A program made the translations under genes and the position numbers. DNA of 64,000 nt from Bacilli bacterium (lineage in GTDB: Bacteria > Bacillota > Bacilli > Alicyclobacillales > SLC66). Shown in pieces: positions 7,760 to 55,106 of the stretch; the first letter of the stretch is position 1, and the number at the start of each line of letters is the position of its first letter. Below the pieces are notes generated by a model. It searched no databases. It saw only the letters and a program-made list of their open reading frames with translations, and was not told the DNA's origin. The stretch is taken from positions 30,228-94,227 of the forward strand of contig JABEUY010000055.1 of NCBI GenBank assembly GCA_013044175.1, in the 5' to 3' direction.

Positions 7760-8941
7760 TCACGAATTATCTCGATGCAGAATGGCGGCTATCTTCTCTG
7801 TGGCTTCCTGTTGCATGTTTTCAGTGACATGGCTGTAGGTGTCTGCGGTCATGGCTATAGACGCATGCCCTAGTCGCTCACTAACGATTTTAAGCGGGAC
7901 GTTGGCTTGCAGGAGCAGTGTGGCATGTGTATGTCTAAGATCATGAAATGATACATGGGGCAGTTTGAGCTTGGTGATTGCAAGCCGCATATCTCTTGCT
8001 AAGGTCATAGGGTCAATTGGTGTACCATCTTTATGAGACATTACGTAGGTAGAGTCAGTGGTGATAAGCTGCCTCTGTCGCCAGTCTTGCAAGCGCGTGA
8101 GCAGTTCTGTATCAACCGGGATAGACCGGATACTTCCCGCAGTTTTTGGATCACCAACAATATCGCCTATTTTTGCCCTTCGTTGTCGTGATCGCACAAC
8201 CCGCAAAATGCCCCGCTCAAAATCCACGTCAGCCCACGTCAGCCCGCAAATTTCACCTCGGCGAAGCCCTGTTTGTAACGCCAGTGTCACGCCAATATAA
8301 GACGCTGGATGCTTGGTTTTTATGTAATCCAGCAGTGCATGGGCTTGCGCTACATCTAATACTGTACGTTTTTCAATGCGACCGTTTGGTGGATCAACAC
8401 GCACCATAGGACTAGTCACTATAGTGCCCCGCTTGACCGCTCGATTTAAGGCGGTTCGCAACACGCGATGTATACGATGGACGCTGGACGGAGCCAGACC
8501 ACGGTCCTGCAATGCGTGATACATAGTCTCGATCTGTTCATGGGTTAGTGCATCCAGATTGATAGCACCAATATAGGGAGTCATCAAATCCGCAGAATAC
8601 TTGTACGTTTCATGCGTTCGAGGCGCAACAGTAGGTTCGATCGCCGTCAGCCATTCAGTCAAGTACGCCTCGATCGTCAGCGGCGGCGTAACCGCTTGAA
8701 CCGCAGTGCTACCCTCCTTGATTGCCGCCAGTGCGCCCATCAACGCGTCTTGCGCATCCGCTTTGAGCGCAAATCCAGACCGTCGAATCTGCGGATAATT
8801 CCCTTTGACTGGATCATAAGGCAGATTGATAATGTAAGACCATTTATCGCCACGCTTGCGAACCGTTCCAGTAGCCAAAAAATCGCCTCCCACAAAATAT
8901 TTTTTTACTTCCTCAAACTTTTTTGTTTCCAGATCATCCAC
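7760..8941 (-). CDS. int: tyrosine site-specific integrase
   Basis: 393 aa. Catalytic-region motifs LRRGEICGL, HDLRHTHATLLL and LGHASIAMTADTYSH. Adjacent to tRNA-Pro. Confidence 0.9.
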   Translation of the reverse strand: MDDLETKKFEEVKKYFVGGDFLATGTVRKRGDKWSYIINLPYDPVKGNYPQIRRSGFALKADAQDALMGALAAIKEGSTAVQAVTPPLTIEAYLTEWLTAIEPTVAPRTHETYKYSADLMTPYIGAINLDALTHEQIETMYHALQDRGLAPSSVHRIHRVLRTALNRAVKRGTIVTSPMVRVDPPNGRIEKRTVLDVAQAHALLDYIKTKHPASYIGVTLALQTGLRRGEICGLTWADVDFERGILRVVRSRQRRAKIGDIVGDPKTAGSIRSIPVDTELLTRLQDWRQRQLITTDSTYVMSHKDGTPIDPMTLARDMRLAITKLKLPHVSFHDLRHTHATLLLQANVPLKIVSERLGHASIAMTADTYSHVTENMQQEATEKIAAILHRDNS

Positions 8942-17472: not shown

Positions 17473-17548
17473 AAGCAATCAGTCAATCATTCAGTCTTAC
17501 CCTTCCAAAAGAAGGGTTTTTATTTGTGTGGAGAGAGGGGTAAAACTC

Positions 17549-20494
17549 ATGAAAAAACGAGTATTGACCAGTATAGCCGCAGTCGCCGTGACGCTTACCA
17601 TGACCACCGCTTTTGCAGCAAGTCCGGTGGTCATGTTTGGCGATAACGCACAACGCACACACGCCAACAGCATTGCAGACGCGTATCCTTGGGCAAAAGA
17701 AGCCGCACTGACCTCCGCAACCGATCCCAAAACAGGGCTGACAGTCAGTAGCTTGGGCAGTAGCAGTACCGCGATTGGCGCGGGGAGCGTCCTGTTTTAT
17801 CCGGTGTCGGCAGGTACAGCCTCGAACAACTTTCAGGGGCAAGGCTATATGATTGCCTATGACACCAGCCATTGGGTAGGTGGAAAGCCTACCGTCATAG
17901 GCATCAATCAGATTCCGAACGTGTCGAACTCATCACCTGTCTATGATCCAAATAACAACGATGCTTATCTAGCGGCGGGCACTAAGTTTTATCGATTCAG
18001 CGTGGCAGGTGGCACGTTGTCGAGTATGGCGGTCAGCATTGGCGGGACAGGAACGCTTAACGGAGGTAAGAATTACAACCAAGTCGTATCATATCCGCTC
18101 TACCTGACAGCCACACAGTCTGGTTTGTCAGTTGACACGGTTTGGATTAGTACGCAGAACGGCTGGCTATACGCAATTGATCCAAACACAATGGCTGTCG
18201 TATATAGTCACAACTTTGGTGTCCGATTTGATGCCTCACCTGCGCTTGTTACTGCCACGAATGGTACACCCTACATTGCGGTAACAGGCGCGTATGATGC
18301 CAACAATGCGAGTTTTGGTGGGCAGTCAGGTACTGGAACGTTGTTTTTGATTGATCCGGTTACAGGTTTGGCGCAGTATGCAGCGAATCCTTATCCCGGA
18401 GTTCCTTCGGTAGCCTCTCCGGTTGCGACATCCAAGGGGCATGTCGCATGGAACGACACCGAGGGGGATGTGCTTCTAGGTACGATTAATCCCGGTGGTA
18501 CTATCTCAATCCTACAGCAGCACGCGAGCATAGGTGACAGTCAAACGTCCGACTTGTCCGAGTCTGGCTATGCAAACGGTCAATACATCGTACCATTTAC
18601 GGACAGGGGCATGATTGGCTACGCAACCGTCGATTTGACAGATGGATTGGTTAATCAATACAAGAGTGCTGGTACTACAGGGCAACTCTACCCAATTGGC
18701 TCACCTGAAATTTCCGCATCCTTAAACATGTATTTGGCAGATCAGGAGGGCGGTATCGACCAGATCGGACCTGACCCATCGAATGGCTATCTTTTCGACG
18801 GTACACACGGCAGTTGGCTTCCAAGTTTCGGCACATCCGGTGGCACACCGCTGTCAACGCCATCCGAACTGAACTTAGGCACTGATTTAGGCACAGTCTT
18901 GCCCACCCTGACCTTAGCAACCAATCAAGGATTGGAACTTTGGGTGAATCAGGGTGAATATTTGACGTTCGGCAGTGACTACACAAGCACGAGTCCGACC
19001 GCATTCAGCACAGGTCTGACGCTCTCAATCGGTGCAAATAACCTGTCGAAAGATGCCGGGAACACTGACAAAATCGACTTCAACATCAATCTCAACGGTG
19101 GCGCGTTTCGGAACGATGTAGGCAGTGTCTCGACCTACAATGCGGCAGGTAATCCGGTAACAGGTGCAATCACGATCCCAACCGGAACGCTGGATACGTG
19201 GTTGACGAACTACAAGACAGCACACCCAACCGCGTGGATCAGCACAGGCATGAACAATGCAGTTGTTGAAGCATATCCACAAAATGGCGATACTGGTAAC
19301 TACGTGTTCCAAGGCAGTACAGCGGCATCAGACGGTTCGAATGCCGAAGTCACAGTGTCATTTCCAGCAGCACCAGCCGCCTTGCCTACGCCGCCATCCG
19401 CGCTTACGGCTGTGAGTGACCCTAGTAGTGTTCTGCCGGGCTATACAGAATGGCGGTTTTTGTCGCCGGGCATGTTTAATGTCAACGAGGGCGTGACATA
19501 TCCGAGCGTTGACACAGCCACGATGCACACGGTTTTGGGCACAGCTTGGAAAGAGCATCCAATCCCTGAACAAGCCATCAATAGCAGCCCCGCAGCCACC
19601 ACAAGCGCGTACTACACCAATCAGCAAAACGGTGGTGGCGTGAGCGACACACAGACTGCGAACTGGTGGAACAATTTCACAATTGAATTCAACGCCACGA
19701 CACGTCCCGCCTCGTTCTCCGTGCAGGGGCAGGTCAAGACAGATGGCGACATGCTTTACCGCAAAACCTACATCGGATCATGGCAACCGCACTGGTACTG
19801 GGTGTCATTCTGGTTTGGTGGTGGGTATTGGAATTGGGACGGCTACACGCCAGTTTATAATACCGAGTATCTTTATCGGAACGTGGGGGTTGTTGAAACA
19901 GAGAGCGCGAGTCTCTCGATCCCACGTGGTGAGACGTACTGGTGGAATCCGAGTACAGTCAATGTGAGTGCAAGCGGCACATTTGGCAACGGCGATACAC
20001 CGATCACTCCTGCAGGTTCAGGTATGAGCTGGACGCAGCCAGTATGGGCAAGTTATGGCGGCTGGATACCGGGCGGCAGTCTTGAGGGTGTGGATTATTC
20101 GCAAGTACCGATCACGACAGGTTTAGGCAACACCAACACGCATGGCTTGACACCAAACAGCATGCTGCCGGGCACGTGGTACAGTGACGCGCCAATGCCA
20201 GCCCCTCCATACGGTGGGGACGATAGCTTGCAAGGCTATCCGACCGTCCATGCGTTCGATGCTGAACACAATGGCGGGGTACTCTTTCAACCGAATGTGA
20301 GCAATTCTGACTATCCACAGTTAGGATCGCCGCAATGGTGGGTACAACCGACATACACCGTCACCAGTGGCAGTGGCACATTCGAGCACCCGCAGATCAA
20401 TACGTGGGTAGACACATGGGCAAAACCGTGGGGCAACAACGGCGGTCAGGGCATCACAAGCACCTCTAAATCGACCGTGACGTGGCATAGCTAG
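17549..20494 (+). CDS. large secreted protein, N-terminal beta-propeller (PQQ/BamB-like repeats)
   Basis: ATG 17549 follows a terminator hairpin and a GAGAGAGGGG RBS. Signal peptide TAFA/ASP. WLYAIDPNTMAVVY-type repeats. About 980 aa. Confidence 0.55.
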   Translation: MKKRVLTSIAAVAVTLTMTTAFAASPVVMFGDNAQRTHANSIADAYPWAKEAALTSATDPKTGLTVSSLGSSSTAIGAGSVLFYPVSAGTASNNFQGQGYMIAYDTSHWVGGKPTVIGINQIPNVSNSSPVYDPNNNDAYLAAGTKFYRFSVAGGTLSSMAVSIGGTGTLNGGKNYNQVVSYPLYLTATQSGLSVDTVWISTQNGWLYAIDPNTMAVVYSHNFGVRFDASPALVTATNGTPYIAVTGAYDANNASFGGQSGTGTLFLIDPVTGLAQYAANPYPGVPSVASPVATSKGHVAWNDTEGDVLLGTINPGGTISILQQHASIGDSQTSDLSESGYANGQYIVPFTDRGMIGYATVDLTDGLVNQYKSAGTTGQLYPIGSPEISASLNMYLADQEGGIDQIGPDPSNGYLFDGTHGSWLPSFGTSGGTPLSTPSELNLGTDLGTVLPTLTLATNQGLELWVNQGEYLTFGSDYTSTSPTAFSTGLTLSIGANNLSKDAGNTDKIDFNINLNGGAFRNDVGSVSTYNAAGNPVTGAITIPTGTLDTWLTNYKTAHPTAWISTGMNNAVVEAYPQNGDTGNYVFQGSTAASDGSNAEVTVSFPAAPAALPTPPSALTAVSDPSSVLPGYTEWRFLSPGMFNVNEGVTYPSVDTATMHTVLGTAWKEHPIPEQAINSSPAATTSAYYTNQQNGGGVSDTQTANWWNNFTIEFNATTRPASFSVQGQVKTDGDMLYRKTYIGSWQPHWYWVSFWFGGGYWNWDGYTPVYNTEYLYRNVGVVETESASLSIPRGETYWWNPSTVNVSASGTFGNGDTPITPAGSGMSWTQPVWASYGGWIPGGSLEGVDYSQVPITTGLGNTNTHGLTPNSMLPGTWYSDAPMPAPPYGGDDSLQGYPTVHAFDAEHNGGVLFQPNVSNSDYPQLGSPQWWVQPTYTVTSGSGTFEHPQINTWVDTWAKPWGNNGGQGITSTSKSTVTWHS

Positions 20495-25750: not shown

Positions 25751-25984
25751 ATGACGAACTTTACTATCTCTGTTACCGATATTGAATCTGGCGAGGATGT
25801 CTTAATTGAGGAAAAGTACACTAGTAATGAATCCCGCGCCGAAGAAATCGCCCAAGAATTCGTGGAGAAATATGGTAAAACGTATTACGTGATCACCGTA
25901 ACTTGGCATCGAGATCGAGACGGCATGAACGGATATTTAAACCCTAATGGTGCAGATTTCAATCCAGAAGATTGGAACGCATAA
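25751..25984 (+). CDS. small hypothetical protein, tandem paralog 2
   Basis: MTNFTISVTDIE..; ACGGAGG RBS. Confidence 0.55.
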   Translation: MTNFTISVTDIESGEDVLIEEKYTSNESRAEEIAQEFVEKYGKTYYVITVTWHRDRDGMNGYLNPNGADFNPEDWNA

Positions 25985-25990
25985 CCGCAT

Positions 25991-26039
25991 AATTTGTCCT
26001 ACAGCCCCCTTCTCCAATAGAGAAAAGGGGGCTATTTTT
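25991..26039 (+). promoter_or_regulatory. ICE intercistronic box-hairpin module, copy 6
   Basis: Box AATTTGTCCTAC; stem AGCCCCCTTCTC/AGAAAAGGGGGCT; TTTTT; ATG 26040. Confidence 0.7.
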
Positions 26040-28541
26040 ATGCCTAAAACCGATGATTTTTGGGATCAAAGCCGTGACGAATGGGCAGCAATTAATCAAG
26101 TCGATTTGACGGATAATGACTTATTCAAATGGCAAGAAGTGGTATTACGCGAACTTCAAGAAATAACCAACAAGGAGGGCACACAATCGGAGGTAAGCCG
26201 GGCAACTCGCGAAGCGCAGTTATCGACTCTGATCGCCACTCATAAAGACATCCCAATCAAGGTCAGACGCTCAATCGTAGTGTCACTCTTGGATGACATG
26301 TTTAGCTTCGGACCGCTGCAATCGTTGTGGAACGATTCAAAAATATCAGACATGCAGGTTTTCGTACCAACAGACAACCGAGAAACACAGATCATCACGT
26401 ACAGCAGTGCCGCTGGTCGCCGGGTTTACGATGGCGCAGGGTTTAGGGACTATGGGCATGTCATGACATGGTTGAATCGCCATTTGGCGCAGTTTGGACA
26501 GCATTATGACGCTGCGAAAGTGAGCATGGATGCGGTGTTTCCAAATGGTGAGAGAATGCACGTGATCACTGGCGTGTCAGGCTATTCAACATTTCGACGT
26601 GATGCGAACGGTGAAATGTCGTACCATTTTGTGCCCTGCGTGATTATCACCATGCGGAGATTTACCAATGCCTTTACGCTTGGCGACCTGACAGCACGAT
26701 CACCTTCACTGGCAGCCGTACCGCAGTTTTCAGACTTGCGCGAGGTCAAAAAGTCGTACACACGCAAGACGCTGTACACGCAGTATGATGGTCGCAGCCT
26801 TGATCCTGCCACCATCGACTATTTAAAAATCATCGTTCAAATGGCGAAAAACCACGTCATCAGTGGAGGCACAGGCTGCCATGATGCCGATGCACCGATC
26901 TTGATGTTTGACGGATCAACAAAACGTGCTGCTGATGTGCAGTTAGGCGATCAGTTAATGGGATCAGATAGTACACCAAGAACGGTGGTTGACCTGCACC
27001 GTGGCGTGGATCGGATGGTAAGAGTGATACCAAACAAGGGTGAACCGTTCGTTGTGAACGAGGGGCATGTTTTATCACTTAAAACAACGCCTAAAGAGGT
27101 TGGAGACACGCGCAAGACGCGAAGTATAACGATTGCGGAGTATCGCGGGCAGCACAAAAAATTCAAGCATCTGCACAAATTATGGCGTACAGACATCGAA
27201 TTTGCGTCAAAAAACTTACTAATCGAGCCTTACTTTTTAGGTTTATTATTGGGGGACGGTTCGATAGGTAATCACAGGGTCGCTATGTGCAGTCCTGATC
27301 CAGAGATTATTCAACGTGTGTATGACGAAGCAAGAATAAGAGGGTTACATGTAAGGGTAAACGGATATGGCACTAGCCGTGATTACTATATCTGTTCCGA
27401 TGTGAAAGGTGAGTATCACAAGAACAATTTGATCTATGATCTAAAAGCATTAGGGCTTTATGGAACTCACGCAGGAGATAAGTTTATCCCTACCATCTAC
27501 AAAACTGCATCACGACAGCAAAGACTAGAATTGTTGGCAGGGCTTCTAGACACAGACGGTAGTTGGGGTGGCGGCGGGTATGACTACATTACGAAATCGG
27601 AGCAGTTAGCTACAGACATACAGTTTTTGAGCCGTAGTTTAGGCTTTAGTACGAGTATTAGTAAGTGTAACAAGGGGTTTACTAGATCAGATGGCACGAA
27701 GTTTGTCGGACAATATTTTAGATTATGTGTTAGTGGCAATTGTGAACAAATCCCCTGCAAAGTCGCGCGTAAAAAGGGGACTGTGAGGCAGCAGAAAAAA
27801 GATGTGCTAGTGACTGGTTTTACCCTTGAAGATGTAGGCTATGGCAACTATTACGGTTGGGAATTGGACGGAGATCATCTTTATTTAGATGGTCAGTTTA
27901 TCGTTCATCACAATAGTGGAAAATCCAGTCTCGCAAATGCCCTGACCGCAGAAATTCCAGATGGCACACTGCTCATCGTGTTAGAAGAGGCGCCAGAGCT
28001 GCAACCGCAGAACACCGATCACGCGATCCGTATTGTCCAGCGTGAGGGTGTTTTCGATTTGTCTGATGCGATGAAAGCTACGTTGAGAATGTACCCTGAC
28101 CGCATTTTCATTGCAGAACTGCGGGACACACTGGCTTACACGTTCCTTCGCGCCATACAGAGCGGACACAGTGGATCTTCCACGACGGTCCACGCAAACT
28201 CGTGCCGTGATGCCATTGATGTGGTGATCAATTTTGCCGCCAATCATGAATCCCACCCGCCACGTGACATGGTTCGAGATATCCTGTTTCGGCAGGTACA
28301 CACGCTCATCCATGCCGAGGCGGTCAAGAAACCAGATGGCATTGCTCGTATGATTGACGAAGTGGTGCAACTTTTGCCTAATCAGACGCTGCATACGGTC
28401 GCGCAATATCATCAGGTCGGAATCAACGAGGACGGCACAGTGGCTGGGTACTTCGAATTCAATGGTCCTACAGACGCGTTCATTCAGGAAATGTTTGACG
28501 CTGGTATCGAAATACCGAAATCTTGGGGGTGGACCGTATGA
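26040..28541 (+). CDS. cpaF: CpaF/TadA/VirB11-family secretion ATPase interrupted by an intein
   Basis: The exteins join to GGTG|SGKSSLANAL (Walker A). Downstream motifs: IVLEEAPEL, RMYPDRIFIAELRD, QSGHSGSSTTVHAN. Confidence 0.85.
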   Translation: MPKTDDFWDQSRDEWAAINQVDLTDNDLFKWQEVVLRELQEITNKEGTQSEVSRATREAQLSTLIATHKDIPIKVRRSIVVSLLDDMFSFGPLQSLWNDSKISDMQVFVPTDNRETQIITYSSAAGRRVYDGAGFRDYGHVMTWLNRHLAQFGQHYDAAKVSMDAVFPNGERMHVITGVSGYSTFRRDANGEMSYHFVPCVIITMRRFTNAFTLGDLTARSPSLAAVPQFSDLREVKKSYTRKTLYTQYDGRSLDPATIDYLKIIVQMAKNHVISGGTGCHDADAPILMFDGSTKRAADVQLGDQLMGSDSTPRTVVDLHRGVDRMVRVIPNKGEPFVVNEGHVLSLKTTPKEVGDTRKTRSITIAEYRGQHKKFKHLHKLWRTDIEFASKNLLIEPYFLGLLLGDGSIGNHRVAMCSPDPEIIQRVYDEARIRGLHVRVNGYGTSRDYYICSDVKGEYHKNNLIYDLKALGLYGTHAGDKFIPTIYKTASRQQRLELLAGLLDTDGSWGGGGYDYITKSEQLATDIQFLSRSLGFSTSISKCNKGFTRSDGTKFVGQYFRLCVSGNCEQIPCKVARKKGTVRQQKKDVLVTGFTLEDVGYGNYYGWELDGDHLYLDGQFIVHHNSGKSSLANALTAEIPDGTLLIVLEEAPELQPQNTDHAIRIVQREGVFDLSDAMKATLRMYPDRIFIAELRDTLAYTFLRAIQSGHSGSSTTVHANSCRDAIDVVINFAANHESHPPRDMVRDILFRQVHTLIHAEAVKKPDGIARMIDEVVQLLPNQTLHTVAQYHQVGINEDGTVAGYFEFNGPTDAFIQEMFDAGIEIPKSWGWTV
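26877..27914 (+). mobile_element. 346-aa intein with LAGLIDADG homing endonuclease, inserted in the Walker A P-loop
   Basis: Starts with Cys (CHDADAPILMFDGS). Block B is NEGHVLSL. LAGLIDADG motifs are LLGLLLGDGSI and LLAGLLDTDGSW. Ends in VHHN, followed by Ser +1. Confidence 0.85.
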
Positions 28542-29386
28542 TTCAGATGTTATTTATCTTGGTGCCCGCGTTGATGATCGTTGCATATCTGACCTTCGAG
28601 CACTTCAAAACAGCCCCGGTCGCGCGTTTGCAGAAGCGGCTTGGCGTTAAACGCAAGCGAGGCAAGGGTATGCAGTCGCTGCATAACCTGTTCACCGCCA
28701 AGAGGCAGCTGACCTACATCACCATTGGATCGGTTGTCGCCGGGATTTATATTGCAGTCGCCATGCTGCATGCCACACCATTTATTGGAGCAATCGGTGG
28801 CGGTGTTCTTCCGTACCTGATATCTGAAGCGTGGAAAGAACGCTGGCTGGATCGTTACGAGGCTGGCGTGGTACAAGCCTTGGAGTATGGGGCTGGAATT
28901 TTTAAAACTGGCGCAACCGTTGAGCAATGGGTGCGCGAAGTAGGTTCGGAGGTCGAAGGATCAATTGTTACGGTTTTTGAAAGAGGCAAATACCAAGTCG
29001 AGTCTGGACAATTTGGCGTGGTCGATTGGCTTAAATATACAGCCGAGACAACACCAAGCAAATTTTTTAGCTATGTGCTCTACGGTCTAATCGCCAATTA
29101 CGAGCAAGCGTCTAGCCTACAAACGTACATGCAGGAGACCCTCGCGGAGATCAACCATCGAAAAAAATACGAGCGCGTCATGAGGCAGCAGCGCGATGAG
29201 GCGATGAAACTTCTGGTGGCTATATCGCTTGCCCCGGTCGCGTTATACGCCATGTTTGCTGGAGCAATCAATGGCTACCTAGCTACCAATCTCACCCAAA
29301 ACCTGATCTTCGGTGTTGGCTTGCTGGGCTATGTCATCCTCTTGTTGTTCGCGAGAAAAACTGCATCCGCGAAGCCTAAAGTATGA
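28538..29386 (+). CDS. tadB: TadB-like type II secretion system F-domain membrane protein
   Basis: ATGA overlap with the cpaF stop. TM - soluble - TM architecture, positioned after CpaF. Confidence 0.6.
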   Translation: MIQMLFILVPALMIVAYLTFEHFKTAPVARLQKRLGVKRKRGKGMQSLHNLFTAKRQLTYITIGSVVAGIYIAVAMLHATPFIGAIGGGVLPYLISEAWKERWLDRYEAGVVQALEYGAGIFKTGATVEQWVREVGSEVEGSIVTVFERGKYQVESGQFGVVDWLKYTAETTPSKFFSYVLYGLIANYEQASSLQTYMQETLAEINHRKKYERVMRQQRDEAMKLLVAISLAPVALYAMFAGAINGYLATNLTQNLIFGVGLLGYVILLLFARKTASAKPKV

Positions 29387-29799
29387 TCAACATACTCTGG
29401 CTTTCCATGCTTGCTGTCGTTCTGGTCGCCGCCATCACGGATTACAGATGGCAGATCATCCCCAACCGCCTTGTCAGAGCGGGTGTCCTGATTGCCCTTG
29501 TCGAGCATACCGCTTGGCAGGGGCTTTATGGTTTAGGAGTTACGCTTGCAGTCTGGGCATTGTGCCTCATAATCGGCTTTGCCCTCTGGCGTGTTGCCCC
29601 GGTCGGTGCAGGTGACATCAAACTTTTGGCTATGATGGCGGCTTTTGTAGGTGCGGGGAACATGCTCTCGATCCTGATTCTCGCACTCGTATTGCAGCTA
29701 CTGGCGCGAATCATTCGAGCAAGACGCGGGTTTTCAATGGCGTTTGCACCTGCCCTCATGGTCGGTAGCCTGTTAGTATTCTGGTATCTCTTCCCATAG
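29383..29799 (+). CDS. A24-family prepilin peptidase (CpaA/TadV-like)
   Basis: 138 aa, polytopic. Two Asp motifs: AAITDYRWQIIPN and GAGDIKLLAMM. ATGA overlap with the upstream gene. Confidence 0.75.
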   Translation: MINILWLSMLAVVLVAAITDYRWQIIPNRLVRAGVLIALVEHTAWQGLYGLGVTLAVWALCLIIGFALWRVAPVGAGDIKLLAMMAAFVGAGNMLSILILALVLQLLARIIRARRGFSMAFAPALMVGSLLVFWYLFP

Positions 29800-29929: not shown

Positions 29930-30484
29930 ATGGCTGGTCAAAGGGTTGGATATATCAGGGTTAGTACAGACGAGCAAAATCGAGAAAGGCAGCTTGATGG
30001 TGTGTCACTGGATAAGGTTTTCAGCGAGGCAAAATCTGGTAAGAATACAGATCGTCCGCAGCTTCAAGCCATGTTGCAATACGTCCGCGAAGGGGACACG
30101 GTGACCGTGCATAGCATCGACCGCCTAGCGAGGAATCTGGATGACCTACGCAAGTTGGTGTTTGATCTGACAGGGCGTGGTGTGAGGGTTGAATTTTTGA
30201 AAGAGAATCTGGTTTTTGACACAACCGACTCACCTTGGAAAACGATGTTTCTAACGATGACAGGCATGTTTGCCGAGTTCGAGAGGGCGATAAATCGTGA
30301 ACGTCAACGTGAAGGTATCGAGCTTGCGAAAAAGCGTGGCGCATACAAGGGTCGCAAACGTGTTTTGACCAAGCCACAGGTTCTAACGATAAGGCAAAGA
30401 TTGGCAAATGGCGAGTCGGTCACAGCATTGGCGCAGGAATTAAGAGTCAGCAGAATGACGATTTACAACTACCTGAACGCCTAA
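29930..30484 (+). CDS. serine recombinase (resolvase/invertase family)
   Basis: VGYIRVSTDEQNRERQ catalytic-Ser motif and a C-terminal HTH (SVTALAQELRVSRMTIYNY). 184 aa. Confidence 0.9.
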   Translation: MAGQRVGYIRVSTDEQNRERQLDGVSLDKVFSEAKSGKNTDRPQLQAMLQYVREGDTVTVHSIDRLARNLDDLRKLVFDLTGRGVRVEFLKENLVFDTTDSPWKTMFLTMTGMFAEFERAINRERQREGIELAKKRGAYKGRKRVLTKPQVLTIRQRLANGESVTALAQELRVSRMTIYNYLNA

Positions 30485-30529
30485 ATTTGTCCTACCCGAC
30501 CCCTTTCTAACATAGAGAGGGGTGTTTTT
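30483..30529 (+). promoter_or_regulatory. ICE intercistronic box-hairpin module, copy 7
   Basis: Box AAATTTGTCCTAC overlaps the stop codon; stem ACCCCTTTCT/AGAGAGGGGT; TTTTT; ATG 30530. Confidence 0.7.
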
Positions 30530-31402
30530 ATGCTCAACTTGGTGAACAAGGAACAAGAATTGTTCGAGGATCGTACCATGCGTGATCGGTTGGCGACACA
30601 GGTAGATGTGTTGGAACGCGTGAAAGCCTTAGCCACATTACCTGATGGGTTGAATGTAACGGTTGAAATGGCTGCAAATTATTACGAGGTTGGTAAACAG
30701 GCAATCGTCAGCCTGATTTATGATAACCGCTTGGAGCTTGAAGAGGATAAGTTGAGACTTCTAACAGGTGATGAACTGAATTCCTTTAAGGAAGTGGGTG
30801 TGATTCCCAAAAACACAGCGTCACTCACACTCATTCCCCGCCGTGCTCTCCTACGAATCGGCATGCTCTTACGTGACAGCGAGATTGCCAAAACCGTGCG
30901 TAACTACTTGCTGAACGTTGAAGAAACCGCGAGAGCCGAAGCCCCGCAGGTGATTCAAAAAGCGTTGACGAAAACGAGTCACCGCATGGCTTGGGGTGCT
31001 GTTCGCAATGCCATCAAGCAGAAAACACAGATTGGTATCATGATTGGGCTGACTCCTGCAATGGCTTCACTTATCGCTATGGAGGATACGGAAAAAGAGT
31101 TTGGCACAGACTTGTCCTCATTCAAGCGTCAAATCCGTGAAGAGGGTACGGACACCACCTACACACCCACCGATATTGGCAAGCGACTGGACCCGCCCTT
31201 GTCTGCGGTAAAGGTCAACGCGCTCTTGGAAACGTTGGGCTTTCAGGTGCGGACCGTCGAGAAGGAATGGACGCTGACGGAAAAAGGACAGCCTTACGCA
31301 CGACTCATGCCTGTACAGATCAATCATGCAACACGCGGCGTGGAAACCACCAAATATATGATACGGTGGAAGGAAAGCATCATAAGTCTGTTACGAGCCT
31401 AA
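30530..31402 (+). CDS. putative DNA-binding / antirepressor-like protein (paralog of 15987..16790)
   Basis: See 15987..16790. The N-terminal domain is conserved and the C-terminal half is divergent. Confidence 0.5.
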   Translation: MLNLVNKEQELFEDRTMRDRLATQVDVLERVKALATLPDGLNVTVEMAANYYEVGKQAIVSLIYDNRLELEEDKLRLLTGDELNSFKEVGVIPKNTASLTLIPRRALLRIGMLLRDSEIAKTVRNYLLNVEETARAEAPQVIQKALTKTSHRMAWGAVRNAIKQKTQIGIMIGLTPAMASLIAMEDTEKEFGTDLSSFKRQIREEGTDTTYTPTDIGKRLDPPLSAVKVNALLETLGFQVRTVEKEWTLTEKGQPYARLMPVQINHATRGVETTKYMIRWKESIISLLRA

Positions 31403-31448
31403 ATTGTCCTACCAGCCCCTTCTCTTTCATAAGAGAGGGGGCATTTTA
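31401..31448 (+). promoter_or_regulatory. ICE intercistronic box-hairpin module, copy 8
   Basis: Box AAATTGTCCTAC overlaps the stop codon; stem GCCCCTTCTCT/GAGAGGGGGC; ATG 31449. Confidence 0.7.
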
Positions 31449-32084
31449 ATGAGCAGACGACGACCACACAAAGACACAACTGTAAAAATTGGGCAGGTAG
31501 GTGAGCAGATCGTTGCCGCTTCCATTCGAAGATATTTGCAGAGCGATGCCTTGCGGACGTACAACAACGTCTATTTCCGGGATGAGCGAGGGAATCCGTT
31601 CCAAATTGATCATCTGGCATTGACTCCACAAGGTTTAATTGTCGTTGAGACGAAGCACTGGGCGGGAATGGTTTGGGGTGGCGAGTCAGAGCGCAATTGG
31701 AGTTACCTACCGAATGGCAGATATTGCTACACGCGGCAGTTCTACAGCCCGGTCCTACAAAATCGAACGCATGTCCAGAAGTTGAAACGCGTATTGGACA
31801 ATGACTTAAAAATGGCATCACTAGTCGTTTTTGGTAATCCTACGGTCACGCTGAACCTGAAAGGTGTGGAGGGCGTGTACACGCTGGCGGGGTTCGAAGC
31901 TGCACTGGAATCCATTCAGAAGATGGAGGCTATTTACGATCAAGCGGCACTGGCATTTTGGCACGAGCGGATCATGAGCAGTCGATTTGTAGACTTCGCG
32001 GGCATGTCAGAGCAGCTTGAATATGCCCAGAATGCGAAAAATCTGGGCTGCTATGTCGCACACAAGCAGGGGCTGCGCACATGA
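31449..32084 (+). CDS. NERD (nuclease-related domain) protein
   Basis: GEQIVAASIRRYL..FQIDHLALTPQGLIVVETKHWAG pattern. Confidence 0.65.
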   Translation: MSRRRPHKDTTVKIGQVGEQIVAASIRRYLQSDALRTYNNVYFRDERGNPFQIDHLALTPQGLIVVETKHWAGMVWGGESERNWSYLPNGRYCYTRQFYSPVLQNRTHVQKLKRVLDNDLKMASLVVFGNPTVTLNLKGVEGVYTLAGFEAALESIQKMEAIYDQAALAFWHERIMSSRFVDFAGMSEQLEYAQNAKNLGCYVAHKQGLRT

Positions 32085-32314
32085 AAACCACGCAGAGCAT
32101 ATACAGCTCGTTTTGTCGGCAGTACGAGTTTACAGAGCAGGAAGCAGCCAAGTTTCTGTCAGGGCGAGTCAATCGGACAGTCGTATACGACATGCTGGCG
32201 ACGACAGCGGCGGCTTTAGGACCGTCAGGACTGCAAGAACTAGAGGCTATTCTTGGCGAGTACGACTATTCACTGCCGCCAAGGGGTGTATTGGGAAGGT
32301 GGCACAAACTATGA
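32081..32314 (+). CDS. hypothetical protein
   Basis: 77 aa. ATGA overlaps at both ends suggest translational coupling. Confidence 0.45.
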   Translation: MKTTQSIYSSFCRQYEFTEQEAAKFLSGRVNRTVVYDMLATTAAALGPSGLQELEAILGEYDYSLPPRGVLGRWHKL

Positions 32315-33189
32315 TCTACACACTTTTTCTCTTGTTACCACTACTGGCAGTTTGGCTAGGCTGGCGAGTCGTCGCTCGATTCGATCCGTATGTAGGTGAC
32401 ACGTTTTACCGCGTCAAACTGGCGTATCGGAAGAGCACCGAGAAGTCAGTTTTGAAGCGGATCAAGACGCTGGTTTACAACTACATCGAAGCGGTAATTC
32501 CGAAGGACTGGTTAGTCCCTCTCGAAAGGATTCTCACGTCAGCGGGGCGACCGGGCGGGTTGAACGCCATCGACGTTATCCTCATGCAGTTACTGATCGT
32601 GGCTGGTATGGGAATTTTAGATATGTGGGCGACAAAATCTTCACCTATATTTCTCCTGATTCTGACAATCGCAGTTGTGACCATGCCGTGGCGCAGGTGG
32701 CTGGGGCAAATTCAGACACGGCGGTTGAACGCAGCCGAGCAGATACGCGGTCTAAAGCGGCGGTATGTGTCGCTCTTGCAGCAGGGTACGCCATTCGAGG
32801 AATCGCTGCGGATTATTTCCAGAGAGGCACAGGGCGATTTTGGCGAAGTGTTCCGCAGACGCTTGAAAGAGGGACGCATGCGAGGGCTGTCAGAATCTTT
32901 GTTGGATTTGCAACATGAATTCAGGGTTGCGGAATTGACAAATTTTATCCAAGTTGTGCGGGTTGCAGATCGAAATTCTACGGCAGCATTAGTGGAGCTA
33001 GTGGGGGCGCAAGTCAAGGATGAAACCTCAAAAATGCAAGATTTTGTTGACAAACGTAAGGCTGTGACTGAAAATCGAATGCGTATGTATACGGCTGGCG
33101 CGTTTGTGTACATGTTGGTGTTTGCTGGATATTTTGTATACAGGATCGCAATGGCTTATTTCAGCGTCCACAGCATTTTCGGACTTTAG
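32311..33189 (+). CDS. tadC: TadC-like type II secretion system F-domain membrane protein
   Basis: ATG 32311 (MIYTLFLLLPLL) overlaps the upstream stop codon. TM - soluble - TM architecture with LQQGTPFEESLRIIS. Confidence 0.6.
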   Translation: MIYTLFLLLPLLAVWLGWRVVARFDPYVGDTFYRVKLAYRKSTEKSVLKRIKTLVYNYIEAVIPKDWLVPLERILTSAGRPGGLNAIDVILMQLLIVAGMGILDMWATKSSPIFLLILTIAVVTMPWRRWLGQIQTRRLNAAEQIRGLKRRYVSLLQQGTPFEESLRIISREAQGDFGEVFRRRLKEGRMRGLSESLLDLQHEFRVAELTNFIQVVRVADRNSTAALVELVGAQVKDETSKMQDFVDKRKAVTENRMRMYTAGAFVYMLVFAGYFVYRIAMAYFSVHSIFGL

Positions 33190-37505: not shown

Positions 37506-39911
37506 ATGGCACAACCAGTCATTTATGCAGAAAATGGAATTGTGATAGATAATCGAGCGCGAGGTTATGCCGTTTATGTTGTTGACGCAGACCTGCGACC
37601 GTTGACGAGTGCAGGGGCGCAGAATCAAGCAATATCAGCACTCGCCAAAGGCATGAAGGAGGTACTAGGCGAATGGCACGTGTACAGCCTTGCGATTGGT
37701 GTACCGCCTAATACTTGGAAGGAACGATTCTTGAAAACCGAGCACCCATTGAGTGTCGATCATGTGGCTGCGGGCTTGAAAAAGTCGGCTGGTGTGTTGT
37801 TTGAGAGGCGCGTTTACATCGTCGTGCCAATCAGTAACAAACTGACAATCCAGCTTAAAGATAATGGTAAAGAATTCCTGCAAGCTGCCAAGCGGACACT
37901 AACACACTCGGTCAAACGCGCATTAAGACTCGAAAATTTTCATGTCCAGCTCTTGGAACAGTTCGAAGAAGAGAGGCGTGTCTGGCACAGGAAATTCAGG
38001 GCATTCCTAAAGCTGCACCCGGCATCACAAGTCGAATTGGAAACGTGGCTACGTCACGGATTTTATCGTGGAGGTGTAGCCCCGGACAGCCGTTTCCCAA
38101 AAAACCTACCAGCTTTCGTGAGTTCGGATGGCGTGATTCACCCACAGCACCATCTTGGCATTTGGACACATGATGGAGTCCTGAAGGAGTCATTCTACAA
38201 CCTCAAAGTCATTCAGCCGACCAAAAACGAGTCCTATCAAACGTTCTACAACGTGCTAAGAGTGCCCAACGAAATCGACGAATCGGACGCAAGCGGCTAT
38301 GACTGGGTTCACCAAGTCGAATACATGGATATCCCGGTAGACGTAGCCATGCACATCCGTGTTGAGGATCCGATTGCAGCACGCAAAAACCTGCGGAAGA
38401 AGCGGCTTCGCGCCGAAAGTCAGTGGAAGGAATACGCAGAGGGCGGCGAAACACCACCGCTGGAATTAGAAGTGGATATCGAGCACACAGCCGAGCTGGA
38501 ACAGAAACTTCGGATGCGTGATCCGCTCGTTCATGTAAAAACGGTCATTGGTTTTGGTGCGGAGAGTTCGGATCGCTTGGCAGAGTACCGTAATCTGGTG
38601 CAAAGCAACCTAGCACTAACCGATCTAGTGCAGCCTCCAGCCGACCAACTAAGACTCTGGCAGTCATTCTATCCTTGGGGGCGTGGCATTTCCCAAGGCT
38701 ATGAAATCCCAATGGATGCGGGAGTTTTTGCGGCAGGGCTACCGTTTTCGACGTTGGACTTTGGCGACTCGCGGGGCTTTTATTTGGGCAAGACGCTAAA
38801 CGAGCGGTCAGTTTTTATGGACCCACGCCGCCCGGCACAGGAATTAAACATGCAGCCGTCTATTCTGCTTTGCGGTGGGTTGGGATCAGGGAAAACGAAC
38901 ACAGCCGAGTATATCGCCGCAACGTTGTACTCATGGGGCGCGAAAGGTTTCATTCAAGACCCAAAAGGTCACGACTACGATAATTTTTACAAAACTGGCG
39001 CGAGAGTCAACATGATTCGCTTGCGGGAAGAGGGAGCAGCACTCAATCCGTTCAGGTTGGGCGTGGAGGGTGTAGAGCGGGACTTACTGGATATAGTGTT
39101 TAATAATGTCACGCATGATGACAACACGCGAGATATCCGCAGTGCCTTGATCGGTCAGGCTTTAACGGCTGTCAAAGCACAGGAAGTTCAGGATATGCAC
39201 ACGTTCGGTAATGCTTTGGCGGCTCTAAGACAAGCCGAGACACGCGAAGTCTATGTCCTACAGCTTGACCTGCTCTTGGGCATGATGGGCGATTTACTTA
39301 GTAATCCTCTTGGGCGCGTCCTGTTCGGCAAGGATTCGCAAGGACAGACACCACAAGACTACGATGTTACGATTGTGGATACAAGCGGGTTGACGATCCC
39401 CAATGGCACACCCAAAACATTGAATGAGCGTTTGAGCGTTGCCCTCTATTACGCGGTGGCAGGAATGGGTATGGGGTACTTCTCGAACCTGCCACAATCA
39501 GTTCTAAAGTTCATGATCTTGGACGAGGCTTGGACGTTGCGAAAGTTCTCACAAGGCGTGGATTTGGTGGACAATCTCTTGCGCAAGTCTCGATCCCTGA
39601 ACATTGTGCCCTTGATGCTCATGCAGAATGCTACGGACTTCGCGAACTGGGGCGAGAGCATTGATGGACTGTTCGCTTGGCGGTTTGTCATGCGTCAGAA
39701 TTCGCAAGTCGAGACTGCCGCAGCCCTCAAATTGGCGGGGTTGGATCACGAGGACGCGCAATATTGGTATAAGGTATTCGCGAGTTTCAGACCCGGTGAA
39801 GGGTTGGTGGTGGATGCACTGGGGCGCGTTCAGCAAATGCAAGTCGAAATGTTGCCACACAAGCTGCTGGCGTGGTTCGATACAACGCCAAAAGCCGATG
39901 ATGGCTGGTAA
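37506..39911 (+). CDS. virB4: VirB4-family T4SS ATPase (ConE/TcpF/Orf16-like)
   Basis: About 800 aa. Walker A is CGGLGSGKTN and Walker B is FMILDEAW. Followed by a VirB6-like gene and a hydrolase. Confidence 0.8.
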   Translation: MAQPVIYAENGIVIDNRARGYAVYVVDADLRPLTSAGAQNQAISALAKGMKEVLGEWHVYSLAIGVPPNTWKERFLKTEHPLSVDHVAAGLKKSAGVLFERRVYIVVPISNKLTIQLKDNGKEFLQAAKRTLTHSVKRALRLENFHVQLLEQFEEERRVWHRKFRAFLKLHPASQVELETWLRHGFYRGGVAPDSRFPKNLPAFVSSDGVIHPQHHLGIWTHDGVLKESFYNLKVIQPTKNESYQTFYNVLRVPNEIDESDASGYDWVHQVEYMDIPVDVAMHIRVEDPIAARKNLRKKRLRAESQWKEYAEGGETPPLELEVDIEHTAELEQKLRMRDPLVHVKTVIGFGAESSDRLAEYRNLVQSNLALTDLVQPPADQLRLWQSFYPWGRGISQGYEIPMDAGVFAAGLPFSTLDFGDSRGFYLGKTLNERSVFMDPRRPAQELNMQPSILLCGGLGSGKTNTAEYIAATLYSWGAKGFIQDPKGHDYDNFYKTGARVNMIRLREEGAALNPFRLGVEGVERDLLDIVFNNVTHDDNTRDIRSALIGQALTAVKAQEVQDMHTFGNALAALRQAETREVYVLQLDLLLGMMGDLLSNPLGRVLFGKDSQGQTPQDYDVTIVDTSGLTIPNGTPKTLNERLSVALYYAVAGMGMGYFSNLPQSVLKFMILDEAWTLRKFSQGVDLVDNLLRKSRSLNIVPLMLMQNATDFANWGESIDGLFAWRFVMRQNSQVETAAALKLAGLDHEDAQYWYKVFASFRPGEGLVVDALGRVQQMQVEMLPHKLLAWFDTTPKADDGW

Positions 39912-39954
39912 AATTGTCCCATTCACCCCTTCTCAATCGAGAGGGGGTTTTTTC
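39910..39954 (+). promoter_or_regulatory. ICE intercistronic box-hairpin module, copy 13
   Basis: Box AAAATTGTCCCAT; stem ACCCCTTCTC/GAGAGGGGGT; TTTTTT; TTG 39955. Confidence 0.7.
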
Positions 39955-42201
39955 TTGCGTAAAATGATCGCGATAGTTTTAGGTGCTGCTACAATGCTGG
40001 CGGTAACGGCCTTACCTGCATTTGCTGCAACCGCAGTCGTTCATGTTGCGGCTGCGAGCACGAATGGGCTGGTGTCTGGGGTGAATTTATTCAGTGGTGG
40101 CAACGTTCCAATCGTCAGTGATTACGTGTTTGACAGTGACGGATGGCTGGGGAATTTCAATGCGATCTACTGGATTGCGAACCTATTGTTTTCCATTTCC
40201 GTTACCTCGATGTTCGCGGCTATCGAGTTTTTCCGGCTTGGGAGTTCGGCTGGCGGGTTGTCTGCGCTCATAAATATGGTGTTGGCTATCTTGCACCATG
40301 CGTACACAGTTCTGGGAACCGTGATCCCGCTGGCGGTGCTGACTTTTGTCGGCATATTTTTCTGGTTTGGCGTAGTCAAGCAGGATGTCCATGCTGTCTG
40401 GGGGCGCGTGATCAAATTTGGGTTGGTGCTGGGCATGTTCGCGATTTTAGTAAGCCCAAGCTTCACCAACTCACAAGTTTTACAAAATGTGAGTGAGTTT
40501 CCGGTTACGATAGGCAGCACGATGGCTGATGCGATAAGCGGGCTGTTCAGCGCAGCAAGCGGCAGCGGCAGTCCTTCGAAGGTCGCTGGGGCAGATATCT
40601 CCAGTCAAATATGGGACACGTTGGTGATCCCTGAATGGATAGCGGGCGAAGAAGGGCAAAACTGGAACGTGCAGGGAACGGCTGTCGTGCCCCTTTTTGG
40701 CGGTAAAGGCACGTCAGCATGGCGGTACATCTTGGGACTACCGCTTCAAAACTCGTCAAGAAATGCAGTAGTGGGGCGGCTGCAAGCGACACAGGGCGGG
40801 GCGACCGCGTTCAGTTTTGGTAATCGGATTGACGTGGCATTCATGGCATCTATTGGGAATATCGGACCGGATATTTACTACCTACTGATGGGCTTAGTGA
40901 TGATTCTTGCAAGGATCGCGTTCTTAATCCTTGTGGCGGCAGGGGCTATTATTCTGCCATTAGAATTGTTTCCAGCCACGAGGTCTTTGACCGCATCCAT
41001 CAAGTGGTTCCAATATATGACAATGACGCTGGCAGTATTGTTTCTTGTGACCATCTACAGTGCCATCGTTAATGGGTTAGTGTTATTGACAAGCACGGCA
41101 CTCGCTGGAACCGTATTCCAAGCTGCAAGCAACTCGGCTTCCAAAGGCACGGCTACTACGGTGAGCTTTGTAGGGGACTTCGTGTTTATTGGTAACGGAT
41201 TGGCGTACTTGGCGGCTATCTTGATCGCCTACTATTTGTATAAAAAGTTAAAGCCGATGCAACGGATTAAGTCACTCACCAATGGCGCAGTCGCTCATAG
41301 TCGTGAGGCGAGAGATCAACGCACAGAAGCTGCCAAGCAGTCGCAGATGTTGCAGGTCAACGAGAAGAAGCGGCGCAATAATCCGAGCACTGGCAAGCGA
41401 GAGCAGAACGTGACGGACGGCGAAGCGGGTGCGCCATTGGCAAGTGCCCGGTATCGCAATGCTTCGCGGGATAGCAGTACAGATACCACATCCTCTGATC
41501 TTGACGATGATGAGAGAGATTACAGCAGTTACGGTAGTCGCAATCCTACTGCCGAGGCAATGACAAAACCTGTGACACCGCATGATCCATTTTTCAATAA
41601 GCAATCGACAGACAAAGGTACGTCTACGCATGTCAACGTTGGTGATACCGGGGCAGACAGCGAGACAGACAAGGCAGTGAAAACCGTCGAATCAGCAGTG
41701 GCGAAGGGCAAATCGGCTGTTATGAAGGGCAAGAAGATTGCAGGGCAACTCGCAAGACCGGATCAAGGCGTTGACTTGCTGGTGGACGCTACGCTGGGCA
41801 AGGCGACTAGCTACATGAAGAAAGTGGCTAAAAATCGCGTAGTCAAAGTCGTTCGAACGGTTGCGGCTGGGAGAGCGGAGCGCAAGGCGGCTGCATCAAG
41901 CCCCATGACTGCCAAGGCTGCACCGGGCACCAAGGCTACACCGAGCACCACGGCTGTACCGGGCACTAAAGCTGCACCGATTGCCAAAGCTGCCAAGGCG
42001 ACCAAGCCTACACCAGTCACACCTAGCACACCAATCACCAAGCCTACACCGACAACACCAGTCACCAAGCCTACAGCAACTAAGCCAATTTTCACGTTGC
42101 GGCACAAGAATGTAGCGCAGATTCGCAAGCCTCGCACTGCGGTTCGTGCCTCCGCAAGACCGCCGATCCGCAGGAATTGGATTCGTGGTGTTAAGTCGTG
42201 A
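39955..42201 (+). CDS. VirB6-like polytopic membrane protein with long K/P/T/A-rich C-terminal tail
   Basis: Signal-like N-terminus and at least 6 TM segments. The C-terminal ~300 aa is low complexity (TKPTPVTPSTPITKPTPTTPVTKPT). Start inferred from module spacing. Confidence 0.55.
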   Translation: MRKMIAIVLGAATMLAVTALPAFAATAVVHVAAASTNGLVSGVNLFSGGNVPIVSDYVFDSDGWLGNFNAIYWIANLLFSISVTSMFAAIEFFRLGSSAGGLSALINMVLAILHHAYTVLGTVIPLAVLTFVGIFFWFGVVKQDVHAVWGRVIKFGLVLGMFAILVSPSFTNSQVLQNVSEFPVTIGSTMADAISGLFSAASGSGSPSKVAGADISSQIWDTLVIPEWIAGEEGQNWNVQGTAVVPLFGGKGTSAWRYILGLPLQNSSRNAVVGRLQATQGGATAFSFGNRIDVAFMASIGNIGPDIYYLLMGLVMILARIAFLILVAAGAIILPLELFPATRSLTASIKWFQYMTMTLAVLFLVTIYSAIVNGLVLLTSTALAGTVFQAASNSASKGTATTVSFVGDFVFIGNGLAYLAAILIAYYLYKKLKPMQRIKSLTNGAVAHSREARDQRTEAAKQSQMLQVNEKKRRNNPSTGKREQNVTDGEAGAPLASARYRNASRDSSTDTTSSDLDDDERDYSSYGSRNPTAEAMTKPVTPHDPFFNKQSTDKGTSTHVNVGDTGADSETDKAVKTVESAVAKGKSAVMKGKKIAGQLARPDQGVDLLVDATLGKATSYMKKVAKNRVVKVVRTVAAGRAERKAAASSPMTAKAAPGTKATPSTTAVPGTKAAPIAKAAKATKPTPVTPSTPITKPTPTTPVTKPTATKPIFTLRHKNVAQIRKPRTAVRASARPPIRRNWIRGVKS

Positions 42202-48103: not shown

Positions 48104-48286
48104 ATGGGATATATGACCGCTAGTCAAGCCGCAGAAAAATGGAATTTATCTCAAAGGCGGGTACAGGTACTTTGCTCACAAGATAGGATTCATGGAGTAT
48201 TTAAGCTTGGTGATAATTGGGCTATACCGGATGATGCAGAAAAACCTCAACACAATAGCAAAAAGAAGGAATTAGCAGAAAAATGA
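48104..48286 (+). CDS. small HTH DNA-binding protein (possible controller of the R-M cassette)
   Basis: 60 aa: SQAAEKWNLSQRRVQVLCSQDRI. Its end overlaps the methylase start. Confidence 0.5.
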   Translation: MGYMTASQAAEKWNLSQRRVQVLCSQDRIHGVFKLGDNWAIPDDAEKPQHNSKKKELAEK

Positions 48287-49383: not shown

Positions 49384-49388
49384 CTTAT

Positions 49389-50801: not shown

Positions 50802-50813
50802 TAGGAGGCTAAT

Positions 50814-55060: not shown

Positions 55061-55106
55061 CAATTTGTCCCCCACGTCCCTTCTCTAAATGAGAGGGGGT
55101 TTTTTC
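55061..55106 (+). promoter_or_regulatory. ICE intercistronic box-hairpin module, copy 16
   Basis: Box CAATTTGTCCCCCAC; stem CCCTTCTC/GAGAGGGGG; TTTTTT; ATG 55107. Confidence 0.7.

Follow-up and report, generated by a model that had tools for sequence, protein, structure and literature searches.

We examined a window of 64,000 nucleotides (nt) from a Bacilli bacterium of the order Alicyclobacillales (assembly GCA_013044175.1, contig JABEUY010000055.1, positions 30,228 to 94,227), in which the gene at 26040-28541 (+) encodes a secretion-type ATPase of 833 amino acids (aa) whose Walker A motif is interrupted by a 346-aa insert with the features of an intein. The gene has the same extent as the database gene call P0002, and the + strand frame in the list of open reading frames (ORFs) runs from 25947 to 28541 (864 codons). 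Starting at the ATG at 25947 would add 31 codons and overlap the end of a small upstream ORF. Because a strong Shine-Dalgarno sequence, AAGGGGG, lies 8 nt upstream of ATG 26040, and given the gene call P0002, the real start is probably ATG 26040 rather than 25947. The parts of the gene are as follows, with residues of the insert numbered from its first cysteine.

26040..26876, + strand: N-extein, CpaF/TadA-like ATPase, 279 aa from ATG 26040, ending ...KNHVISGGTG, the first half of Walker A
26877..27914, + strand: whole intein, 346 aa, 38.8 kDa, from Cys1 to His345-Asn346
26877..27218, + strand: N-terminal splicing (Hint) part, about aa 1-114, with block A CHDADAPILMFDG and block B N61-E-G-H64
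27057-27068, + strand: block B NEGH, intein aa 61-64
27219..27800, + strand: LAGLIDADG homing-endonuclease domain, about aa 115-308
27234-27266, + strand: LAGLIDADG motif 1, FLGLLLGDGSI, aa 120-130, with Asp127
27474-27491, + strand: GDKFIP, with Lys202
27531-27566, + strand: LAGLIDADG motif 2, LLAGLLDTDGSW, aa 219-230, with Asp227
27801..27914, + strand: C-terminal splicing part, about aa 309-346, with block G FIVHHN
27849-27887, + strand: block F YYGWELDGDHLYL, with Gly at position 4 (YYGWEL)
27915..28541, + strand: C-extein, 208 aa and stop, starting with Ser+1 of SGKS, the second half of Walker A, and containing IVLEEAPELQ (Asp-box-like), PDRIFIAELRD (Walker B) and SGHSGSSTTVHAN (His box)

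The translation of the insert begins CHDADAPILMFDGS and finishes FIVHHN, with ...MAKNHVISGGTG immediately upstream and SGKSSLANAL downstream, and the insertion point therefore lies between Walker A residues 4 and 5 (G-G-T-G^S-G-K-S, where ^ marks the insertion). A sequence-only reading of this DNA had located a 346-aa insert in the Walker A motif of a CpaF-like ATPase at 26877-27914 and proposed that its removal restores GGTGSGKS. The translation and the gap in orthologue alignments agree on the first point, and joining the flanks in silico bears out the second, as the joined sequence reads GGTGSGKS and its Pfam T2SSE match, which with the intein in place lies on the C-terminal flank and scores 53 bits, rises to 76 bits (cut-off 24.9) and spans the junction. 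Six intein-less orthologues leave an alignment gap exactly at 26876/27915, and their empty alleles read as contiguous GGTG-SGKS or its variants GATG, GSTG-VGKT, GETG and GGTG-SAKT. Comparison at the DNA level gives the same boundaries, including with the homologue on the Alicyclobacillus acidocaldarius plasmid pAACI02 (GGTG-AGKS), and across the six orthologues and pAACI02 the empty site follows the ungapped pattern G[GAES]TG-[SVA][GA]K[ST]. The boundaries of the insert are thus proved, since the empty-site orthologues are contiguous there, and the alignment with intein-less homologues, which had been suggested as a check, restores a contiguous Walker A and excludes a shifted residue register. 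A natural 144-aa mini-intein in the orthologue from Sulfoacidibacillus thermotolerans (P0005) is without exactly the endonuclease part (about aa 115-308), while Cys1, NEGH, HHN and Ser+1 are all retained; the limit of the N-terminal Hint part given above was set from it.

Pfam Hom_end_hint matches aa 1-82 of the intein (E 1e-15, 58.8 bits, cut-off 32.1) and LAGLIDADG_3 also scores over its cut-off in the insert (30 bits, cut-off 22.5), so that the likeness to inteins greatly exceeds what chance would give. The intein models TIGR01445 and PF14890 have no match to it, because of its VMA-type divergence, so the comparison with intein profiles proposed in the sequence-only reading is positive for Hom_end_hint and negative for these two models. 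By sequence, the top match of the insert in the PDB is PI-SceI, the intein of Saccharomyces cerevisiae VMA1 (E 2.4e-10), in which D218/K301/D326 align with D127/K202/D227 of the window intein and the C-terminal ...VVVHN is aligned to ...FIVHHN. When the full precursor was modelled with AlphaFold2, the predicted local distance difference test (pLDDT) score was ~90 across the insert, and Foldseek ranks PI-SceI first (E 9e-20, template modelling (TM) score 0.62 on the target), followed by the Thermococcus litoralis VMA intein, with the Prp8 intein also matching. Across 12 relatives, C1, N61, H64 and N346 show no variation and H345 is retained in 90% or more; among the endonuclease residues, D127 and K202 likewise never vary and D227 is found in 90% or more. 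The hallmarks previously listed for the insert, namely Cys1, NEGH, two LAGLIDADG motifs and a terminal HN followed by Ser+1, are all present, although motif 1 reads FLGLLLGDGSI and not LLGLLLGDGSI. The two LAGLIDADG helices each end in a catalytic acidic residue (FLGLLLGD127G and LLAGLLDTD227G), and further cysteines of the intein lie at positions 138, 173, 264, 284, 289 and 294, in addition to that at position 1.

All sequence features of a class 1 intein are found here (Cys1, N61-E-G-H64, His345-Asn346 and Ser+1). Class 2 inteins of the KlbA type are defined by Ala1, by the lack of an N-terminal nucleophile and by direct attack of Cys+1 (PMC2807308), whereas the window intein has Cys1 and Ser+1, and class 3 inteins combine a non-nucleophilic residue 1 with a Trp-Cys-Thr triplet that includes a block F Cys (PMC2807308), whereas here there is Cys1 and block F position 4 is Gly. 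The insert is very probably a class 1 intein that still functions, with a PI-SceI-type homing endonuclease that is active or was so until recently; splicing, DNA cleavage and homing are inferred. The same architecture of Hint and two-motif LAGLIDADG domains is seen in PI-SceI (1vde, 1ef0, 1lws) and the T. litoralis VMA intein (7qsu), and the window intein shares with PI-SceI a Hom_end_hint-type N-terminus, block B N-x-x-H, Gly at block F position 4, the Asp/Asp/Lys residues and a terminal His-Asn. However, their identity is only ~20%, PI-SceI has 454 aa compared with 346 aa, it uses Cys+1 and not Ser+1, and its host is a V-ATPase and not a bacterial secretion-type ATPase. The insertion position also differs, as the VMA1 intein lies ~20 residues downstream of the V-ATPase Walker A; an identity of site with the yeast VMA1 intein had been considered and was withdrawn because of this downstream position.

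It is hardly conceivable that the insert is not an intein at all, and represents instead an assembly chimera or an in-frame LAGLIDADG gene fusion that is kept in the mature protein. The genome is a draft of 156 contigs, which would allow for the former, but identical architecture and the same junctions occur in the independent assemblies of the metagenome-assembled genome (MAG) JA4.bin15, an ENA metagenome and S. thermotolerans Y002, and the endonuclease is framed by Hint blocks A, B, F and G in just the arrangement seen in PI-SceI. Furthermore, a retained insert of 346 aa within GxxGxGK[ST] is incompatible with nucleotide binding.

The host belongs to the T2SSE superfamily, with PF00437 over its cut-off and with Walker A, Asp box, Walker B and His box. 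Using the intein-less orthologue P0006 for a motif-by-motif alignment, the best PDB relative is Caulobacter crescentus CpaF, matched over both domains (E 2e-32), with an identical ISGGTGSGK and with corresponding Asp box, Walker B and His box. Likewise, the predicted fold of the two flanks matches TadA/CpaF (8rkd, E 1.7e-15) and VirB11 in Foldseek. The spliced host would be functional, given that the joined flanks score 76 bits for T2SSE and that all four of these motifs can be aligned to those of CpaF, and as Walker A is split by 346 residues it would follow logically that pilus function depends on splicing.

In the mechanism that we propose, the 93.6-kDa precursor would be unable to bind ATP, its P-loop being split. 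Cys1 would undergo an N-S acyl shift, assisted by Asn61 and His64 of block B, and the resulting thioester would be attacked by the Ser+1 hydroxyl, Ser+1 being at the same time the serine of the P-loop. Cyclisation of Asn346, with His345 assisting, and an O-N shift would then yield a 54.8-kDa ATPase with an intact GGTGSGKS and a free 38.8-kDa endonuclease, and the ligated product would carry the junction peptide NHVISGGTGSGK. The endonuclease would cut the Walker-A-coding DNA of intein-less alleles, and repair would copy the intein into them (homing).

We compared the window allele with its JA4.bin15 orthologue and obtained a proportion of nonsynonymous differences (pN) of 0.20 in the N-terminal Hint part, 0.22 in the endonuclease, 0.13 in the C-terminal Hint part and 0.14 in the C-extein, against a synonymous proportion (pS) of ~0.84 overall and 0.85 in the endonuclease part, although synonymous sites are saturated and these values allow no dN/dS ratio but only the statement that pN is much lower than pS. 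As pN is low against saturated pS in both the Hint and the endonuclease parts, splicing and endonuclease functions both appear to be conserved. These values bear on whether the intein could be a splicing-dead relic, in which case the ATPase gene would effectively be a pseudogene and the Tad-like pilus either non-functional or served by another ATPase. In favour of a relic, the window genome is without a second ATPase copy that could show a purifying need, block B carries Asn although Thr is commoner there, and the Gly of block F stands at a position that is Asp in most inteins. However, the aligned PI-SceI has the same Asn and Gly variants. PI-SceI splices efficiently. In addition, the nucleophiles and assisting residues of the window intein are invariant or nearly so among its relatives, the frame is open across 833 codons, and pN is far below pS in both exteins and intein, whereas a dead intein in an essential motif would free the exteins from constraint. 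A relic is thus very improbable, and a splicing-competent intein remains our preferred interpretation.

We surveyed 64 genomes of the Alicyclobacillales and found the ATPase family in six, with a full intein in two (the window genome and one of three paralogous copies in JA4.bin15) and a mini-intein in one, S. thermotolerans Y002 (WP_109431574.1). Empty sites were found in seven gene copies from four genomes (two in JA4.bin15, one in HSP1.bin31, two in A. acidocaldarius and two in another genome). Searching the protein database gave two orthologues with a full intein (P0003 and P0004), the mini-intein (P0005) and six without an insert; P0005 is named only 'ATPase, T2SS/T4P/T4SS family', and no protein of this set carries an intein annotation. 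The three copies in the MAG Bacillota bacterium JA4.bin15 lie on three contigs (L003, L005 and L006) and are 62-69% identical to the ATPase of the window. Using three intein models and the intein itself as queries, no further inteins were detected in the window genome or in 20 relatives, with the insensitivity of TIGR01445 and PF14890 to this type of intein covered by the searches with PF05203 and the intein itself.

The distribution also bears on a reading that is compatible with a selfish intein but adds a function to it, in which the intein is a domesticated conditional switch, its splicing gated by temperature, pH, redox or metal via the Cys1 thiol, and in which it would control ATPase maturation, piliation and transfer of the element post-translationally. 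The insertion position does make activity strictly splicing-dependent, the S. thermotolerans allele has lost the endonuclease while retaining a mini-intein predicted to be splicing-competent, as expected if splicing is what is kept, and conditional splicing is documented for the P-loop intein of mycobacterial DnaB (PMC6195587). On the other hand, intein-less orthologues are common and look equally constrained, which indicates that the intein is dispensable, and the full-length alleles keep their endonuclease under selection, as expected of a selfish homing element. Mini-inteins are also a normal decay stage of the homing cycle, and no extein or intein cysteine is adjacent to Cys1 in the sequence. 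We therefore regard such a switch as unlikely.

Beyond the orthologues, the nearest inteins are 55-57% identical over their full length and are found in genuine P-type TrbB ATPases, with one more in a DotB/PilT-like ATPase. Those TrbB hosts score 365-415 bits for NCBIfam TrbB_P with the intein included (cut-off 304.55), one of their loci adjoins a MOB-P relaxase and a Toprim primase, and their exteins share ~30-38% identity with those of the window in the ATPase core only. A maximum-likelihood tree built from 30 inteins united the three CpaF-like ones in a clade (100/99) that was nested in the TrbB-hosted inteins (100/99), and an approximately unbiased (AU) test rejected a clade of TrbB inteins only (p 0.002), the group tested having been chosen post hoc, after inspection of the tree. 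Farther members of the clade, with 40-46% identity, include many SF2/RadD-type helicases, a DnaB-like helicase and VirB4, and the VirB4 protein P0035 holds its copy at GPTG^SGKS. Scanning species-representative genomes gave at least 549 loci of this clade in Verrucomicrobiota, Planctomycetota, Proteobacteria, Bacillota, Bacteroidota, Actinomycetota and Thaumarchaeota. The hosts recorded for the clade are SF2 helicases, DnaB-like proteins, VirB4, AAA+ ATPases, TrbB, a PilT/DotB-like ATPase and the CpaF-like ATPase. Among the scanned loci, the site was read only where the junction was a clean xTG^CH..., and every clean junction read as xTG^C...N^[S/T/C]GK[S/T], including GPVG^...^SGKT in thaumarchaeal ATPases. 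This suggests that the window intein comes from a lineage specialised in a single P-loop position, xTG^[S/T/C]GK.

Some members of the clade were recorded in their own right. The intein-bearing TrbB closest to the intein of the window is L018 (GCA_021810885.1, JAJZQP010000144.1), whose accession prefix (JAJZ...) is like those of the two Bacillota MAGs with ATPase orthologues (JAJZCW and JAJZAS), which may hint at one sampled community. Four loci from Thaumarchaeota/Nitrososphaerales MAGs (L030, L034, L035 and L036) have inteins of 41-42% identity at GP[VI]G^C...THN^SGKTMLAKKL, in an AAA+-like P-loop context. The metagenomic SF2 helicases P0019 and P0022 combine the P-loop intein with a second, unrelated Hint-type insert downstream (PF07591/PF14890/PF01079), for which a second ...VHN^C junction is visible.

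The GC content at third codon positions (GC3) of the intein is 0.42, compared with 0.53/0.55 in the exteins of the window, and intein GC3 was below extein GC3 in all four hosts examined (the window, L003, L004 and a 64%-GC TrbB locus). Because this holds in every host, the intein looks like a horizontal acquisition, an import travelling with mobile-element genes. There is also a bolder proposal, which we hold to be about evenly balanced between right and wrong, in which the PI-SceI-like clade would be a Walker-A specialist, with an endonuclease tolerating any DNA that encodes xTG^[S/T/C]GK, hopping between non-orthologous P-loop NTPases and using conjugative elements as one vehicle. The copy in the window would then have arisen by ectopic homing from a P-type TrbB ATPase into the unrelated Tad-like ATPase of a Gram-positive-type integrative conjugative element, in an order otherwise without inteins.

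Several observations weigh against the main interpretation of the insert as a functional homing intein in a CpaF/TadA-like ATPase, as do the saturation of synonymous sites and the post hoc choice of group in the AU test mentioned above. One intein-plus and two empty copies coexist in JA4.bin15, and most synonymous positions are different between the empty sites and the occupied one, so either the endonuclease fails to cut these diverged sites or it is not very active. Neither a co-conversion tract nor a conserved homing site was visible when sought at the DNA level, and the flanks differ at most synonymous positions. The 60-nt reconstituted site also matches an intein-less paralogue at 47/60 positions, more than the 40/60 that it shares with the intein-plus orthologue. 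Finally, the host falls under every NCBIfam equivalog cut-off, with P0006 reaching 122.7 of 373 bits for TIGR03819 (CpaF/TadA) and 123.8 of 250 bits for TIGR02788 (VirB11). The assignment of the host to the CpaF/VirB11 family in the sequence-only reading is therefore sound for a CpaF/TadA-like member of the T2SSE superfamily, by sequence and by fold, but does not extend to the CpaF/TadA or VirB11 equivalogs, and we regard the host as a divergent family of its own, with 'CpaF' a functional analogy and not a curated membership.

Inteins in related ATPases have been recorded before. A survey by Novikova et al. (2016, Table 3; PMC4760082) tabulates archaeal inteins in VirB11 (COG0630, 21 cases) and CpaF (COG4962, five cases), and bacterial inteins in VirB4 (five cases, in Firmicutes and Proteobacteria), and stresses the P-loop bias, with its table being without bacterial CpaF and VirB11. 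When we searched the literature for inteins of bacterial CpaF, TrbB, VirB11 or PilT, this survey was the only result, and no description of such an intein came up. The archaeal VirB11 and CpaF inteins share the host superfamily (PilT/VirB11/CpaF) with that of the window, but the latter is bacterial and lies in a conjugative element. The earlier remark that an intein in a secretion/pilus ATPase of a conjugative element is less familiar was fair, but it was overstated in view of the tabulated archaeal VirB11/CpaF and bacterial VirB4 cases (PMC4760082) and of the sister inteins in TrbB. Among the archaeal cases, the inteins of the VirB11-like KlbA of Methanocaldococcus and Pyrococcus are class 2 mini-inteins with Ala1 and without the penultimate His (PMC2807308), whereas the window intein has Cys1, His345 and an endonuclease. 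Bacterial VirB4 and IcmO inteins are likewise found in the motor ATPases of conjugation and secretion on mobile elements, although their host family is VirB4 or a coupling protein and not of VirB11/CpaF type, and the IcmO intein of Burkholderia vietnamiensis is class 3, with a WCT triplet and no N-terminal nucleophile (PMC2807308).

The 'classic' P-loop inteins, such as mycobacteriophage TerL1-a, DnaB-b, MCM-a and RFC-a, reflect a strong bias towards P-loop NTPases (PMC5050341, PMC4760082), and their site as given by Kelley et al. (2016) is GK^T, between the invariant Lys and Thr (PMC5050341). Both these and the window intein lie in Walker A and make ATP binding dependent on splicing, but the window site, G^SGK, is two residues earlier, and unlike at the classic site its +1 nucleophile comes directly before the second Gly. 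Closer in behaviour are the cluster 1 inteins of Anaeramoeba, which form one clade found only in P-loops of non-homologous proteins and for which P-loop-to-P-loop transfer has been proposed (Gallot-Lavallee et al. 2023; PMC10710043). These are eukaryotic and intragenomic, whereas the clade of the window intein extends across prokaryotic phyla and mobile elements, and the likeness noted here is one of behaviour.

The ATPase gene shares an operon with the next two genes downstream and is surrounded by the following features.

28523-29386, + strand: TadB-like T2SSF platform protein, in the operon of the ATPase
29383-29799, + strand: A24 prepilin peptidase, in the operon of the ATPase
32017..33189, + strand: TadC-like T2SSF platform protein, with a resolvase/NERD cassette between it and the TadB and peptidase genes
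7760-8941, - strand: tyrosine integrase, at one end of the element
62409-63932, - strand: D5-like primase-helicase, at the other end of the element

Other Tad-type neighbours are a CpaE/ParA-like ATPase and a CpaB-like SAF protein, and the transfer genes of the element encode TcpE, a VirB4-like AAA_10 ATPase and an SLT hydrolase, with ParM-like and EAL proteins encoded in addition. That the host is carried by a conjugative element, as had been claimed, agrees with this arrangement of integrase, TcpE, VirB4-like ATPase, SLT hydrolase and primase-helicase around Tad-type genes, and its gene content marks it as a Gram-positive-type integrative conjugative element that includes a Tad-like pilus module. 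The cassette that cuts the Tad-like operon (29930-32314) encodes a serine recombinase (Resolvase and HTH_7), a family-less protein of 290 aa and a NERD nuclease-domain protein. At 48283-51785 there is a low-GC island (GC 0.35-0.36, compared with ~0.50 around it), in which two C-5 cytosine methyltransferases lie on either side of a BpuJI-N/NOV_C restriction endonuclease, and which has the look of a restriction-modification module that entered the element in a separate event. Three long ORFs (17528-20494, 39628-42201 and 55089-57710; 988, 857 and 873 aa, respectively) had no Pfam match at E 0.001. The element is partly syntenic with pAACI02 of A. acidocaldarius DSM 446 (NC_013207.1, L001). This plasmid is typed as non-mobilizable by PLSDB/MOB-suite, yet it carries a block syntenic with the transfer and Tad-like genes of the window, which encodes an 'ATP-binding protein' of ~800 aa, a P-loop NTPase, a SAF-domain protein, a T2SS/T4P/T4SS ATPase and an EAL protein, together with a second CpaE/SAF pair.

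Overall, we see this intein as a fairly ordinary further case of a known phenomenon, with a modest extra interest in its bacterial conjugative setting, in the series of full, mini and empty alleles, and in the evidence for one Walker-A-specialised lineage with a move between TrbB and a Tad-like ATPase. It adds a case from a bacterial conjugative element to the splicing-dependent secretion and pilus ATPases that have so far been documented mainly for archaea. Within one small bacterial order, the full intein, the mini-intein of the cultured strain Y002 and the empty sites would make up a compact series of the homing cycle, and the paralogues of JA4.bin15 offer a natural test of the target range of the endonuclease. 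That one intein lineage occupies a single sub-position of Walker A in six or more unrelated families of ATPases bears on the cause of the P-loop bias of inteins, and on whether this may lie in selection for regulation or in the promiscuity of endonuclease targets.

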